Made by a program: the position numbers and the translations under genes. The notes beneath the pieces were generated by a model. It did no database searches. It was not told the origin of the DNA and worked only from the letters and a program-made list of their open reading frames with translations. A stretch of DNA of 43,643 nucleotides, from positions 1 through 43,643 of IMG/VR virus record IMGVR_UViG_3300045988_006838; one strand, written 5' to 3'. Each line of letters starts with the position of its first letter. The first letter of the stretch is position 1. The stretch comes from a virus. Shown piece after piece: positions 15,406 through 23,812 of this stretch.

Positions 15406-16599
15406 TCAATCGTCATTGATCAACACCGCCTTTTTGCCCGTGAACTTTTCCCAGCGATCAATAATTACATCGGCATACTTTGGGTCAAACTCCATGCAGT
15501 ATGCGTGTCTTCCGTTCTGCTCTGCCGCCATAATGGTGGTGCCGGAACCAGCAAACAGGTCAAGAACATTTTCTCCCGGCTTGCTGGAACACTGCATCTG
15601 ATAATCAAACAGTTTGATGGGCTTCATTGTTGGGTGCTCCGCAGACTTAACCGGCTTATCAAAATTGAGCACCGTGGTCTGCTTCCTGTTTTTGAAAAAA
15701 TAGTGCTTGTGCCCGTCTTTCCATCCGTAAAGGCACGGCTCGTGAGCATCGTCCTCAATTTCGTTTTCACCGTACAGGCAAGGCTCATGTTTCCACTGAA
15801 AGTCTTGCCTTCCCATCACAAGCGAATTTTTTACCCAGATCAAGCACTGGCGCACGCGAAGCATCGCATCTTTGCACGCGCCCCTAAAGTTGTACCCCTC
15901 TCTATCAGCATGCCAAATATAAAACGGTGCGCCAGGCTTCATAACCATTGCTGCGTTAAAAAATGCATTCGTCAAAAACCGCCTAAATGCCGTGTCTTCC
16001 ATGTTGTCGTTTTTGATCTTACCGGCGGTGCCCTTATAGTCCACATTGTAAGGCGGATCGGTAAGCAACAAATCCATTTGTGCCCCCCCCGCAAGCTTTT
16101 GTACGTCTGTCAAATACGTGCTGTCTCCGCACATAAGGCGATGGTCTCCGAGCTGGTACACATCGCCCAGTTTGCTCTTCGGCTCTGCCGGTAAAACGGG
16201 ATCGTAGTTGTCCTCTACCACTGACGTGTCGAGTTCATCCCGCAGACCCCAATCAAAGTCAAAAGCAGACAAGTCAAGCCCCGGCAGCTCATCAGCCAGC
16301 AGGTCAAAGTCCCAATCGCTCTCGTTGCTCTTGTTATCCACCAGCCGCAGGGCGTTCACCTGTTCCGGCGTGAGATCGTCCACGCAGACACTCGGTACTT
16401 CTTCCATACCTAGCTTCTGCGCTGCCAGAGCGCGGCAATGCCCGATTACGATAACGCCGTCGCGGTCAATTACAATCGGCTGCACGAACCCGTACTGTTT
16501 AATGCTTTCGGCCACATTGTTGATTTGCCGTCTATCGTGCTTCTTGGCATTTGCAGCATACGGAATAATATCCGACAGCCGCTTGTTTTTTACTTCCAT
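15406..16599 (-). CDS. ParB-like nuclease domain fused to DNA methyltransferase (N6-A/N4-C, DPPY type)
   Basis: ATG 16599 with AAGGAGG RBS (track start 16728 is an extension); ParB-N motifs (IVIGHCRALAA), TDPPYNVDY motif IV, EHPTMKP, DLFAGSGTT motif I. Confidence 0.9.
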   Translation of the reverse strand: MEVKNKRLSDIIPYAANAKKHDRRQINNVAESIKQYGFVQPIVIDRDGVIVIGHCRALAAQKLGMEEVPSVCVDDLTPEQVNALRLVDNKSNESDWDFDLLADELPGLDLSAFDFDWGLRDELDTSVVEDNYDPVLPAEPKSKLGDVYQLGDHRLMCGDSTYLTDVQKLAGGAQMDLLLTDPPYNVDYKGTAGKIKNDNMEDTAFRRFLTNAFFNAAMVMKPGAPFYIWHADREGYNFRGACKDAMLRVRQCLIWVKNSLVMGRQDFQWKHEPCLYGENEIEDDAHEPCLYGWKDGHKHYFFKNRKQTTVLNFDKPVKSAEHPTMKPIKLFDYQMQCSSKPGENVLDLFAGSGTTIMAAEQNGRHAYCMEFDPKYADVIIDRWEKFTGKKAVLINDD

Positions 16600-16675
16600 G
16601 TGGCCTCCTTTGTCTGACGCACCGGCCTCCCACCACTGGCCTTTGTCATTGGCACGTCTGTACCCGGCTTTCGCC

Positions 16676-16930
16676 TCACCTAATATGTTCCCGCCGTGAG
16701 CTATGTGCCCCGCAAGCATACATAGCATCCACCACGGCGAAATCCTTTGCAGTAAGCAGACTATTTGAGACGCATCCCATACAGCGGTCTGTCAGCGCAA
16801 TCACACCGCGCTGCGCCTTTTCATCAGCCGCACACTGTTTTTGCGGATTAACTGTCCGCCGCTGTGGCCACAGCTTGTGTGCACTTAACTTCTCGCGCTT
16901 CCTCGCCCGCTTGTGTGACTGGTACGGCAT
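16676..16930 (-). CDS. Possible small basic Cys-containing protein (84 aa); alternatively part of a non-coding RNA
   Basis: MPYQSHKRARKREKLSAHK...DRCMGC...; weak RBS; only ORF in an otherwise ORF-free stretch. Confidence 0.25.
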   Translation of the reverse strand: MPYQSHKRARKREKLSAHKLWPQRRTVNPQKQCAADEKAQRGVIALTDRCMGCVSNSLLTAKDFAVVDAMYACGAHSSRREHIR

Positions 16931-20307: not shown

Positions 20308-20390
20308 GACTTTTTACCTCCAAAAATGTTATAAATTACGACAAACGATACGCCAAATACAGTGATGAATAGTGTGATGATCTCTTTCAT
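20304..20390 (-). CDS. 28-aa single-TM micropeptide, not in ORF track
   Basis: RBS GGAGGGAAAAAG; MKEIITLFITVFGVSFVVIYNIFGGKKS; ATGA overlaps at both ends (translational coupling to SPFH gene). Confidence 0.45.
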   Translation of the reverse strand: MKEIITLFITVFGVSFVVIYNIFGGKKS

Positions 20391-20641
20391 CTTTTTCCCT
20401 CCGGCGTACTTAACGCCGCCAGATTAAACCGCAGCCCCTCATTGGCCTGCCGCAGCCCCTCATTGGCCTGCCGCAGCGCCTCTATCTCCCGCTGCTGGTT
20501 CTCGATCAGGTCAGCGGCAGCAAACTGCAATTCACTTTCGCAATCATCGCCCGCCGCAGGGCACTCTGTACAGTGTTCGCAAGAATCTTCACCGTTAAAT
20601 GCACAGCACCGCAGCGCGGTCACGATCTCATCTCTTGTCAT
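20387..20641 (-). CDS. Hypothetical Cys-rich / coiled-coil protein
   Basis: ATG 20641 with GGGGAGGAA RBS; CCAFNGEDSCEHCTECP...; contains a 21-bp x2 tandem duplication (20431..20472) encoding LRQANEG LRQANEG. Confidence 0.55.
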   Translation of the reverse strand: MTRDEIVTALRCCAFNGEDSCEHCTECPAAGDDCESELQFAAADLIENQQREIEALRQANEGLRQANEGLRFNLAALSTPEGKR

Positions 20642-20642
20642 G

Positions 20643-22449
20643 TCATTCCTCCCCAACCCATCTTTTTGTCACCGCGATGGGGAACGGCTCGATCTCGCTT
20701 GCCCACCGCGCCGTGCCTTTGCCGTGTATCCGCTCCCAGATCAGCGGGAACCCTCCGATGCCATCAAATAAGCTACCCAGCGTCGCGTCCTCCGGCAGAT
20801 ACCGCGCCATGCGCCGCAGCATCCAGTCCCAGAAGGGCAGGGCGATGGAGTTGCCCAGCGCCTTGTACCGTGGGCTGTCCGCACTTCCTTTCACTTTTAT
20901 TTCGCGCCCGCGTTTATCTGTTTTAACCCAATCCCCAATATCCGTCCATCCGTCTGGGAATCCTTGCAGCCGTTCGCATTCCATCGGTGTCAGGCGGCGC
21001 ACCACCATGTGCGTGATGGCAAGATCTGTGCTATCCTTAAAGTCCCGTTGCTTGCAACTGCTTGCAACCTCGGCGGCGCGGTAATATCCAAACCCGTTCA
21101 TCTGGTATGTAAGCGGCACTTGGTTTCCGCCCGTGCCCATCCTCGCCTGCAAACTGGGTGCCTGCTCCCCACACTCGCGGATGACGTCACAGGCGTGTGT
21201 CATGTCCAGCGCCACCACTGCGGGCTTATTCCCGCCGCACTCTGCGTTCAGTGTAGGAGACAGTTCCTCTTGATAGCCGATGCTCCGCGCCTGTTCACTA
21301 TTGCCCAGCTTAAACCCGGCGCACAATACGCTGTCCCGTGCCATGCCGCCGTTCTCGTTGGCGTTCAGGCTGTGCCATGCGCCATCCTGATCGTACACCC
21401 GCGCACTCTGCGCGTCCCACGGATTCATGCACATTACCCCGTGGCGGTCGCCAGCGGTCAGTGTAGGAGACGGGTCGCCCTCTTTCCCAATGCCAAGACC
21501 GTTGCCGCTTCCATCGTGGTTGCGGCTTTCTCCGCCGCCCTGCCATCTGGTGGCTTTGTCGTTGATGGGAATTGCCGTTGCAAATACGCCGTGCGAATGT
21601 GCGGCAGAAATGGTGTTCGCTGGGTCGCCCGGTTCTCCTACGCCAAATCCTGTTCCGCGCCCTAACGCTTTGCAGCGCGTAGCCACCATCAGGTTTATAG
21701 GCGTGGGCGTAAAAATCGCCTGGTCATTGCCCGTACCCAGCGTTCCGCTTTTCTCTGTCTGCACTAACGCGCCTTTTCCTCCTCCGTCACAGCCCCCCCT
21801 GATGCGGACTGCATAAGAAGCACCGCTTTCAGCCGCTCCGGCAGATCCTTCCCCCGCCGCTCCACTCTCCGCAGGATGCCCAGACACGCTTTCGCGGTCA
21901 AATTGTATTTGGGCAGCGGATTCTCCTCCAAAATCTGCGACAACCGAGATTCTTCGGCGACGCTGTGGCGTCCCCAGACGGATAACATTTCCTGTACGGC
22001 TGTCTCGGATGGTTTTTCCCCAGTCCTTAGCGTCGTGAGTTCGCCAAGCGATAGACCACCCATCACCGTCAATGGCTCCTGCTTTTGTCCATTTCCACTT
22101 TTTCGGCAGTCCAGATAAAGAAAATCCTGGTTCTGCGATACGCGCAATTTCTTCCAGCACGGCGTGGAAGTCTTTTCCTCTGTTGCTGCTGAATGCTCCG
22201 ACCACGTTTTCCCAAACGAGAAACCGAGGTCGGACCATGTCACCTGTCCGTCCATTCCGTTTGTCCTCCGCTCTCATTTCTTTTACGATGCGCACCTGCT
22301 CCATAAACAAGCCGCTTCGCGCTCCCGCCAGTCCGGCGCGTTTTCCGGCGATGGATAGATCCTGTCTAACAAGGTGAACCACCTGTAATACACCAAATGG
22401 GTTCAATCTCTTCCCCATTTATTTTCGTAATATCGCCTAAATGTTTCAC
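20643..22449 (-). pseudogene. dcm: Cytosine-5 DNA methyltransferase, circularly permuted and multi-TRD, split by a 4-nt insertion/TAG at motif IV
   Basis: 27-codon ORF 22449..22366 (GAGGTGA RBS, GTG; MKHLGDITKINGEEIEPIWCITGGSPC-TAG), then +1 frame QDLSIAGKR, FLVWENVVG (VI), GTPQRRRR (VIII), long Gly-rich TRD region, RRLTPMECERLQGFPDGW (IX), YKALGNSIALPF (X), then LGSLFDGIGGF (I) and WASEIEPFP (II) at the C-terminus. Confidence 0.75.
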
Positions 22450-22461
22450 CTAAATCACCTC

Positions 22462-22737
22462 CTAATCTCCAAACACCACGCCGCACTCGTCCTTCAGCAC
22501 GTCCTTGATGTGCTTGCGCTTGATGCGGCCTTCGTTGATCTCCTCTGCCAGCTTTTCCAGGCACTCATACAGATACGCGATGCTCTGCGTGTCCCGGCTG
22601 TCCGCTGTCTCCTCTTGGACGTGCCAGCCGCATTTGTCCATCAGCACCATCGCCACCATGTCCATATTCTCCCGTGTGCCTTGCAGCTTGCCACGCATGA
22701 AAATGCGGTCATCCCTGCTCAAATGCTGTTTACCCAT
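22462..22737 (-). CDS. Hypothetical protein
   Basis: 91 aa; RBS GAGGTATTGAG; ends with TAG stop. Confidence 0.55.
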   Translation of the reverse strand: MGKQHLSRDDRIFMRGKLQGTRENMDMVAMVLMDKCGWHVQEETADSRDTQSIAYLYECLEKLAEEINEGRIKRKHIKDVLKDECGVVFGD

Positions 22738-22738
22738 C

Positions 22739-23812
22739 TCAATACCTCACTCCGATGTAGTCCAGCACCCGCGCATAACCAAGACCGTCTTTCGTGGGCT
22801 TCCACAGCCCATCCGTGTCGAACGCACCACCGCCGATGCAGAACTGGTAGTGCTTCGGGTGCGTCAGTTTCATGCGTTCAAAGCGGTTGACGCCCTTTTC
22901 GAGGTGCGCACCGAACGCGCAAAACATACAGCCCGTCCTCTGGCATCCTGTGCAGTGCAGCTTGCAGTCGATCAGCGTCGCGCCGTAGTCGTTCTCGCCG
23001 TCGCTGGCCACAATGTCGCCGTACACGCTGGCGTATGGGAGTTGGTTGTCCACGATAAACCGCAGCACGTCTTGCCCCGTCCAAAAACTCATGGGCTTAG
23101 ATAAGGGGCGCTTCCCTTCAAAGGCGTTGCAGCCGGTTTCGCGCCATTTTTGCATCCGCAGAAGACTTTCCTCCGCCATTGTTGCCGTCGTGGGCTTGAC
23201 ACCCGCTCGGTGCTCATAGCTCTTTGATGGGGACTTTTTCATAATTTCACAACACTTGTCTGATATGAGGAATGGAGCTGAAAGCAAATACTCCCACTTT
23301 TCGCAGTTGTACATACTCTTTTCGCCATCTGAACGCAAGACTTCCCCACGCAAGAGTTTCATGCTACGACTTTCTGGTGATCGCCGCGCAGTTTCAATTC
23401 TGTGCGCCACATTCTTTCCTACGATGCTGTACCCGTACTTCCGCACCACCTGCCGAACGTTCATCTTCGGACGCAGGCGGTGGAGGTTGACGGTCACGCG
23501 CGGGAACTCGCGCCGCAGCCAGTCCGCGTATGTGTTCACAAATTTCTGGATTTCCGGGTATTCCAGCCCCGTGTTCACAAACACCAAGTTCAGCTCCCAC
23601 GGCGGTGTCCTGAAGCTCGACAGATACCGCGCCGCCAGATACGCCAGCACCGTGCTGTCCTTGCCGCCGGAGAAACTGACGTAGCACTGTCCGCCCCATG
23701 CGGTGTACCATTCGTCCAGTTTTTCGTAGGTCAGTATCTCCTTGTCCTGCACGTCCAGCGCCATCAGTTTCTTCGCCGCTTCATTCGTCAGCGGCTGATT
23801 TATCGGCAGCAT
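22739..23812 (-). CDS. PAPS-reductase-family PP-loop enzyme (DndC/IbrA/BrxP-like) with C-terminal Cys cluster
   Basis: 357 aa; SFSGGKDS PP-loop; C-terminal CKLHCTGCQRTGCMFCAFG cluster. Confidence 0.75.
   Translation of the reverse strand: MLPINQPLTNEAAKKLMALDVQDKEILTYEKLDEWYTAWGGQCYVSFSGGKDSTVLAYLAARYLSSFRTPPWELNLVFVNTGLEYPEIQKFVNTYADWLRREFPRVTVNLHRLRPKMNVRQVVRKYGYSIVGKNVAHRIETARRSPESRSMKLLRGEVLRSDGEKSMYNCEKWEYLLSAPFLISDKCCEIMKKSPSKSYEHRAGVKPTTATMAEESLLRMQKWRETGCNAFEGKRPLSKPMSFWTGQDVLRFIVDNQLPYASVYGDIVASDGENDYGATLIDCKLHCTGCQRTGCMFCAFGAHLEKGVNRFERMKLTHPKHYQFCIGGGAFDTDGLWKPTKDGLGYARVLDYIGVRY

Follow-up and report, generated by a model that had tools for sequence, protein, structure and literature searches.

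A stop codon conserved behind the catalytic cysteine codon in a naturally permuted family of phage cytosine-5 methyltransferases: a candidate site of translational recoding

How does a DNA methyltransferase gene come to carry a stop codon and a change of frame directly behind the codon for its catalytic cysteine? The question is raised by a gene on the minus strand of a viral sequence from IMG/VR (record IMGVR_UViG_3300045988_006838), all 43,643 nucleotides of which were analyzed and are here called the window. A preliminary description, made from the letters alone, had read the gene as a circularly permuted cytosine-5 DNA methyltransferase (C5-MTase) interrupted by the four bases TAGA, and had offered four explanations for the interruption: a recent pseudogene, an assembly error, a two-piece enzyme, or recoding. 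Its statements about the sequence of this gene all hold on re-reading the window. Comparison of the gene with its relatives indicates that the interruption is a selected, TAG-specific and evolutionarily maintained feature, and of the four explanations recoding is the one favored by the comparative data.

The gene begins with a small open reading frame (ORF), here called ORF0, which has its own Shine-Dalgarno (SD) sequence (AGGAGGTGA, 22463..22455; all features of the gene are on the minus strand) and reads MKHLGDITKINGEEIEPIWCITGGSPC from a GTG start at 22449 through 27 codons to a TAG stop at 22368..22366. ORF0 (22449..22366) contains motif III (GDITKI), strand β-4 and GGSPC, such that the catalytic Cys is its last residue, and it aligns with residues 58-81 of M.HhaI and residues 49-71 of M.HaeIII. 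The 0-frame stop and one further base form the TAGA (22368..22365), after which the main coding frame, +1 relative to ORF0, runs for 573 codons and a stop (22364..20643). It opens with QDLSIAGKRAGLAG, the rest of motif IV (22364..22323), and continues through motif VI (FLVWENVVG, 22223..22197), motif VIII (GTPQRRRRISVVADFGG, 21974..21924), a variable region, motif IX (RRLTPMECERLQGFPDGW, 20999..20946) and motif X (YKALGNSIALPF, 20867..20832) into a C-terminal tail (20831..20646) that carries motif I (LGSLFDGIGGF, 20780..20748) and motif II (WASEIEPFPIAVTKRW, 20705..20658), and ends at a TGA (20645..20643). GGSPC closes ORF0 and QDLS opens the +1 frame, and a single polypeptide would arise only upon recoding; intact relatives read GGSPCQDLS. 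The TAGA lies exactly between the catalytic Cys and Gln codons, as had been described, and its deletion restores GGSPCQDLSIAGKR, as in ~95 of the 120 best homologues. Both the large ORF (65.8 bits) and the TAGA-deleted protein (96.4 bits) exceed the gathering cut-off of 22 for Pfam family PF00145. The main frame has no ribosome-binding site (RBS) or plausible start codon of its own in the window sequence, and its translation must therefore derive from ribosomes that started at ORF0. A separate gene for an N-terminal domain, which might have been overlooked, is not present: the window holds no other C5-MTase motif I or IV.

The motif order III-IV-VI-VIII-variable-IX-X-I-II was confirmed both by the motif coordinates and by alignment to PF00145. 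The C-terminal 62 amino acids alone match positions 4-33 of PF00145 (E = 0.045), as expected if motifs I and II lie at the C-terminus, and when this tail was moved before the N-terminus, HMMER returned a single PF00145 alignment over positions 4-131 with 89.8 bits. The N-terminus aligns with residues 58-112 of M.HhaI and 49-104 of M.HaeIII; the protein therefore begins at motif III, and the new N-terminus falls where motif II normally joins motif III, as the preliminary description had proposed. A 17-amino-acid natural linker, WDWMLRRMARYLPEDAT, connects motif X to motif I. Homologues of both motif orders were found, and one high-scoring segment pair sufficed to align the re-permuted query with canonical-order phage enzymes, covering 96-99% with an identity of 58-65%. 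The permuted layout is common to essentially all of the 120 best homologues, which start with M-x-HLGDI and end with ...LGSLFDGI-GFPL...WASEIE-FPIAVTK. When the tail alone was searched against 1.84 billion cluster representatives, 1505 clusters (50% identity) matched, and among the best 150 of these the match lay nearly always at the C-terminal end. An AlphaFold2 model built on a 55-sequence alignment of intact homologues was uninformative (mean pLDDT, the predicted local distance difference test, of 31).

These alignments indicate that the circular permutation is real, family-wide and of Type B, with motifs I and II after motif X in one ORF, the start at motif III and the N-terminus between motifs II and III. 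It is not of Type H, the M.BssHII type, in which motifs IX and X stand ahead of I to VIII; here, motifs IX and X lie between the variable region and motifs I and II. The comparison with M.BssHII made in the preliminary description is thus imprecise: both belong to the permuted C5 class, but the type of permutation differs. According to Slaska-Kiss et al. (2018), every natural permuted C5-MTase then known was permuted in the variable region, in the manner of M.BssHII, and the Type B layout, although highly active when engineered, was apparently absent among natural C5-MTases (PMC5944983). A 2025 classification of topologies places m5C enzymes only in the canonical and M2.Eco31I-type topologies. 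Within the searchable literature, the phage family is therefore a natural case of Type B, a topology new for natural enzymes, and this natural counterpart of the engineered permutation supplies a piece that the model of how methyltransferase permutation evolves had lacked. The earlier remark that permuted m5C enzymes are rare holds for the literature but not for gut phage metagenomes, where the Type B family is very common.

To establish how often the interruption occurs, we typed the junction in IMG/VR loci retrieved by protein similarity (80 loci), calling a TGT-TAG-N-CAR junction T-type (interrupted) and an intact junction I-type. Among the 76 loci that were typed, 35 were T-type and 41 I-type, and ~25 of the 120 best database proteins likewise carry the interruption, beginning with the frameshifted reading ...VVHLVRQDLS. 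A degenerate DNA scan, which allowed any codons for GGSPC followed by TAA, TAG, TGA or TGG, was pooled with this first locus set and brought the total to at least 154 interrupted loci and at least 105 distinct haplotypes, compared over an interval that begins 20 nucleotides (nt) ahead of the start codon and closes 300 nt beyond the stop. The insert among the 155 listed loci was TAGA in 120, TAGC in 34, TAGT in 1 and TAGG in none. Neither TAA and TGA versions of the junction nor 4-nt inserts beginning with a base other than T gave any match in IMG/VR. A search for revertants, in which a T-type flank would lack the TAGN, found none, all 14 of its 14 matches being unrelated low-GC canonical methylases. 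A species-genome search yielded only five loci in metagenome-assembled genomes (Clostridia and Oscillospiraceae, plus probable mis-binnings). The small ORFs are strongly divergent between lineages, as illustrated by MKHLGDITKINGAEIEPVWCITGGSPC, MKHYGDVTKIHGNEVEPVDCVIGGSPC, MKHYGSICEIDGSKIEPVSCITGGSPC and MIHLGDICKINGAEIEPVDCIIGGSPC. A lineage with the canonical order I to X (loci L221-L225, in two diverged variants; IMG/VR 3300006144_000141 and others) is also interrupted: its ORF0, of 76 amino acids, ends in ...DIITFGSPC, the junction reads GGC AGC CCT TGT TAG C CAG GAC, and an intact +1 ORF of 578 amino acids follows. Because these canonical-order loci share the CCU-UGU-UAG-M-CAR core, the interruption is independent of the permutation.

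Selection on the interrupted allele is apparent in both frames. Across 35 T-type haplotypes, codons 2-22 of ORF0 have a proportion of synonymous differences (pS) of 0.735 and a ratio of nonsynonymous to synonymous proportions (pN/pS) of 0.26, and over the last five codons pS drops to 0.096. This synonymous freezing affects the block GGT GGT TCA CCT TGT TAG (22383..22366) in interrupted alleles only: the third-position entropies of its five sense codons are 0.19, 0.79, 0, 0.19 and 0 in T-type alleles and 0.49, 1.54, 1.40, 1.02 and 1.00 in intact alleles, which use any codons for GGSPC. CCT, TGT and TCA are each associated with the interruption (Fisher P = 1.6e-18, 6.9e-7 and 2.5e-21, respectively), and no second copy of the conserved block was found elsewhere in the window. 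An entropy profile of 59 T-type upstream regions showed that the RBS and start region of ORF0 are also nearly invariant among interrupted alleles. Its T-specific ends (the GTG start, a CAT codon and the block) imply that ORF0 evolved as a T-type lineage. Downstream of the junction, the first 75 main-frame codons have a ratio of nonsynonymous to synonymous substitution rates (dN/dS) of 0.11-0.12 and a median dS of 0.54 across 76 T-type haplotypes, and the same region in 38 intact alleles has a dN/dS of 0.09-0.10. The gene thus combines the two marks looked for in a recoding site, synonymous conservation at the site and purifying selection in both frames. The base behind the stop appears to be constrained as well. 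The change from AGA to AGG, a synonymous transition in the +1 frame, was never seen, whereas AGA to AGC, which replaces Arg with Ser, recurs in several lineages, implying that the nucleotide behind the stop, rather than the +1 codon, is what is constrained. A and C after a stop codon are said, from the 1995 work of Poole, Brown and Tate, to be weak termination contexts in Escherichia coli.

Several readings of the TAGA compete with recoding. There is next to no chance that it is a sequencing or assembly artefact in the window, in which case the true sequence at 22360..22372 would be TGTCAGGAT: more than 150 contigs, drawn from independent projects (JGI, ENA, Logan, NCBI TPA) and with lineage-specific flanks, have the identical TAGN junction, so the assembly error considered earlier is excluded. 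So is the recent pseudogene, given that synonymous divergence has reached a pS of 0.74 in ORF0 and, downstream, a median dS of 0.54, with a pN/pS of 0.26 and a dN/dS of 0.11. A null allele maintained for longer, in which the 4-nt insertion inactivates an orphan methylase that many hosts make dispensable and recombination with intact alleles keeps the rest healthy-looking, would fit the absence of the catalytic Cys from the large ORF as written, the broken downstream ORFs in 6 of 35 interrupted and 6 of 41 intact alleles of the first IMG/VR set, the breakage at other sites of roughly every second complete locus in the wider T-type set, and the frequent recombination shown by the mosaic variable region. 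We nevertheless consider it improbable. Refreshing ORF0 from intact alleles would erase its T-specific GTG, CAT codon and block, yet the synonymous divergence is saturated and the peptide conserved; neutrality leaves the five frozen codons, the strict TAG and the A or C as fourth base unexplained; none of the 154 listed loci has a second lesion in ORF0; and the same site is found in the canonical-order lineage.

Two further readings have the large ORF translated as a protein in its own right. It might be joined noncovalently by the free 27-amino-acid ORF0 peptide, having been made separately by termination and reinitiation, for example at the GUG at 22382, a main-frame codon inside the conserved block. 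Purifying selection on both frames would be expected of such a two-piece enzyme, and the same family has a two-chain form, split after motif VIII. C5-MTases are also known to tolerate splitting, M.AquI being naturally split and fragments [1-61] and [62-395] of M.MpeI complementing each other (PMC5944983). The GUG, however, has no SD sequence before it and the bases upstream of it are unconserved, the A or C as fourth base makes for weak termination, the opposite of what efficient termination-reinitiation needs, and a 27-amino-acid peptide that supplies a central β-strand and ends on the nucleophile is without precedent. With the fixed CCT and TGT and the absence of TAA and TGA also left unexplained, we give this reading only a small chance. 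A Cys-less large ORF might alternatively act as a noncatalytic, sequence-specific DNA-binding or shielding protein, ORF0 being a mere leader that delivers ribosomes. The DNA-binding and S-adenosylmethionine motifs of the large ORF are indeed all kept under selection, and gene callers annotate it as a protein of 575-625 amino acids; but ORF0 keeps the catalytic residues of motifs III and IV (G5, D6, I10, G12, E16-P17-V18 and GGSPC) with a pN/pS of 0.26, and the large ORF lacks an initiation signal, which makes this reading very unlikely.

Programmed, stop-dependent recoding, by a +1 frameshift or a 4-nt hop, is in our view the best explanation of the TAGA, although the case for it is evenly balanced. 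The gene would then be a working member of a very large, naturally permuted family of gut-phage C5-MTases, with a variable region that is probably multi-specific. Ribosomes would start at the GTG at 22449 and translate 27 codons, whereupon UGU in the P site would meet a poorly terminating UAG-A in the A site of the proposed recoding site, UGU-UAG-A-CAG. A fraction of the ribosomes would continue in the +1 frame and yield the full-length enzyme, and the remainder would release an inert 27-amino-acid peptide. The frame could change by either of two routes. A stop-stimulated +1 frameshift would give PC-R-QDLS (junction peptide GGSPCRQDLSIAGK). Alternatively, a near-cognate Gln-tRNA might read UAG, pair again with the CAG that lies four bases downstream, and so give the native PCQDLS (junction peptide GGSPCQDLSIAGK); UAG differs from a Gln codon in its first base only and is the stop that a Gln-tRNA would misread. 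Re-pairing of a Gln-tRNA would account for why the stop is strictly TAG, why the TAG-N-CAR geometry is exact and why N is free in its coding value. Work on prfB and on P-site-driven frameshifting has linked weak pairing at the P and E sites to +1 shifts, and UGU (P site) and CCU (E site) are both wobble-read codons. The site stands at codon 28. The likely purpose would be a low output of methylase, or dependence on the state of release factor 1 (RF1) or the tRNAs of the host.

A number of observations weigh against such recoding. That ribosomes change frame here, by what route and to what end, is something we infer from sequence. As the preliminary description had noted, there is no classical slippery site, the shift from UGU to GUU allowing no re-pairing of tRNA-Cys in the +1 frame, and a +1 shift would yield PC-R-Q, in which an Arg (or Ser) separates the catalytic Cys from the conserved Gln; the 4-nt hop that would avoid the extra residue has no exact precedent. 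No conserved 3′ structure was found, the downstream synonymous sites being free to vary, and local RNA folds are no better than those of shuffled sequences (z = -0.18 and -1.31). The SD-like element AGGUGGU (AGGUGGUU) ends 5 nt before UGU, which is not prfB-like spacing, and is missing from the canonical-order interrupted lineage. The downstream signal of purifying selection could also be inflated by recombination with intact alleles. Finally, cultured phages and isolate genomes yielded no interrupted allele, the gene itself was found in no cultured phage, and all of the sequences are metagenomic contigs.

Three other ways of decoding the junction were considered and rejected. A +1 slip one codon earlier, from CCU to CUU, would lose the catalytic Cys. 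An internal RBS-like element within the block, AGGUGG-N6-UUG, opens a third frame that is closed after 37 codons. Reassignment of TAG through a suppressor tRNA does not fit, the 0 frame beyond the TAG being nonsense and meeting a stop after 41 codons; there is no tRNA in the window, and no tRNA with a CUA anticodon or an 8-nt (extended-anticodon) loop was found in 74 interrupted loci.

In the lineage with TAG-C/T-CAA junctions, every locus whose flank is long enough has a tRNA array, with tRNA-Gln(UUG) in it, immediately upstream of the methylase gene. The arrays (Leu-CAA, Leu-UAA, Pro-UGG, Gln-UUG, Leu-UAG, Gly-UCC and Met/Ile-CAU) are carried on contigs of 70-140 kb (loci L085, L104-L106, L109, L113, L115, L126, L133, L139, L142, L147, L155, L167, L169, L170, L174, L186-L188 and L194). 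The adjacency of tRNA-Gln(UUG) is suggestive, but it may simply reflect compensation for codon usage. A more specific proposal, which we put forward tentatively and think somewhat less likely to be right than wrong, is that CCU-UGU-UAG-(A/C)-CAR may be an undescribed UAG-bypass signal, possibly acting via a Gln-tRNA that restores PCQ, and would tie production of the methylase to the state of RF1 and tRNA-Gln. The UCACCU of the block is also a copy of the 16S rRNA anti-SD core and is complementary to AGGUGA and AGGUG; AGGUGA occurs twice in the SD and start region (AGGAGGUGAUUUAGGUGAAA, 22446..22463, minus strand), and AGGUG lies just upstream of the block. The predicted pairing is no better than in shuffled controls.

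The main frame is overlapped by a further ORF, B, which encodes 163 amino acids and is shifted by +1 relative to it (22255..21764, minus strand; conserved part 21949..21800). From SRLSQILEE (21949) through PKYNLTAKACLGILRRVERRGKDLPERLKAVL to a run of seven G residues (G7), frame B has a pN/pS of 0.11-0.43, whereas the main frame over the same bases (linker 21923..21792, read ESAAQIQFDRESVSGHPAESGAAGEG...) is unconstrained, with a pN/pS of 0.9-2.1. Over motif VIII the pattern, taken from pN/pS and codon-position entropies, is the opposite. Purifying selection acts on the conserved frame-B peptide, ...SRLSQILEENPLPKYNLTAKACLGILRRVERRGKDLPERLKAVL. All three codon positions are constrained within a stretch of 27 nt, whose family consensus is TCGGTTGTCGCAGATTTTGGAGGAG, and this fits with both frames being read there. 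The frame-B peptide lies at +1 of motif VIII in nearly all relatives, and the canonical-order gene of Streptococcus phage Javan191 also has frame B, as an ORF of 135 amino acids. Streptococcal genomes are typically of low G+C content, and an alternative-frame ORF of that length would be unlikely to occur by chance in such a genome. In the window, frame B meets no stop across 116 codons of the main frame (P = 0.048 by codon shuffling). The peptide gave no significant match in Pfam, NCBIfam or PHROGs.

The dual-coded segment ends at the G7 homopolymer (codons AGG GGG GGC, 21799..21793, minus strand), a tract that the family as a whole conserves. Of the 45 interrupted relatives 15, and of the 40 intact ones 6, have G8, G9 or other indels there (the variants include L017, L029, L045, L066 and L118). 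These changes end the main frame (IRGGL*) and connect frame B with the variable region and motifs IX-X-I-II, giving a two-chain (alpha plus beta) arrangement; the window has the fused form. Phase variation, slippage or alternative architectures that have become fixed could underlie these variants. Many relatives also have a second G7 tract, ACCT-G7-CTACCACGATGA, ~277 nt after the junction, which is not present in the window.

The variable region (21791..21105, minus strand) holds five x-x-T/S-L modules (SGTL, SPTL, WHSL, SPTL and APSL); the modules reported in the preliminary description are present, but it had named four. They number 2-7 among homologues, whose proteins are 510-733 amino acids long. 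BLAST detected no internal repeat among the modules. They are putative tandem target-recognition modules, making a multi-specific enzyme with several target-recognition domains plausible from the sequence. The region is mosaic among relatives, pointing to frequent recombination. Four homologues (P0058, P0081, P0084 and P0099) contain an intein with a LAGLIDADG endonuclease (PF14528, PF13403 and PF14890); that of P0058 lies in motif VI, between WENV and the next Cys, and several intein-bearing members are also TAGN interrupted.

The window as a whole is a temperate siphovirus-like genome with an integrase, tape measure protein, major head protein, portal and large terminase. It encodes another DNA methyltransferase, one joined to a ParB-like domain (15406..16728, minus strand; phrog_498, E = 9e-152), and a PP-loop protein resembling 3′-phosphoadenosine 5′-phosphosulfate (PAPS) reductase (22739..23812, minus strand), two genes upstream of the C5 methylase. 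Both methyltransferases and the PAPS-reductase-like gene form a DNA modification cluster. The gene that follows the C5 methylase (20387..20656, minus strand) overlaps the methylase stop by 14 nt and encodes a Cys-rich protein of 89 amino acids with a tandem LRQANEG-LRQANEG; similar Cys-rich genes occupy the same position in relatives.

If the reading of the gene as recoded is true, three layers of nonstandard decoding would coincide in one gene. A decoded UGU-UAG-M site would be a new bacterial or phage recoding signal that is RF1 specific, has no slippery codon and lies inside an active-site motif; such sites are abundant in human-gut phages. Gene callers would at present be misannotating these genes, in their hundreds, as Cys-less methylases truncated at the N-terminus. 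The frame-B ORF and the G-tract variants further point to decoding as a level at which phage epigenetic enzymes are regulated, which bears on restriction evasion and on gut methylomes.

Among known systems, the closest in layout are the engineered Type B permutants of 2018 (PMC5944983), which have the same N-terminus between motifs II and III and the same C-terminal motifs I and II and were the most active of the constructs made. These are monospecific CG methylases from the laboratory, whereas the phage family is natural and abundant and has a long, modular variable region. M.BssHII, M.Alw26I, M2.Eco31I, M.Esp3I and M2.BsaI (Type H, zeta or "topology F") are likewise permuted within one polypeptide, but in the M.BssHII group the N-terminus lies in the variable region and motifs IX and X come before motifs I to VIII; in the window gene, the break is between motifs II and III. 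Canonical C5-MTases of Firmicutes phages (Javan191, QBX15552.1; Ruminococcus phage NatCom_28274) are 58-65% identical to, and colinear with, the re-permuted N-terminal 150 amino acids, and they too have the modular variable region and an overlapping ORF in the +1 frame. Their motif order, however, runs from I to X and they are mostly uninterrupted, loci L221-L225 having the same TAGC. The multispecific orphan C5-MTases of Bacillus phages SPR, phi3T, rho11s and H2 carry several tandem recognition modules between motifs VIII and IX, a likeness in layout, but their motif order is canonical. M.AquI and M.EcoHK31I are two-polypeptide enzymes, and the second chain of M.EcoHK31I, encoded in another frame inside the first gene, resembles frame B and the two-chain relatives. 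In the window gene, by contrast, the break follows the catalytic Cys rather than falling in the variable region, a start signal is missing from the downstream frame, and the frame-B peptide is not motif IX.

For the candidate recoding site itself, the nearest parallels are prfB, which encodes release factor 2, and antizyme, which likewise combine a short ORF0, a stop in a weak context, conserved 5′ bases, a +1 product and an early site, that of prfB being at codon 26 and that of the window gene at codon 28. The window gene shares with prfB the in-frame stop in a weak context, but its stop is the RF1-specific UAG where prfB has UGA, and its UGU cannot re-pair in the +1 frame as the CUU of prfB can. 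Nor does it have an SD-like element at the ~3-nt spacing upstream or a 3′ pseudoknot, and its site, in contrast to these precedents, lies inside a catalytic motif.

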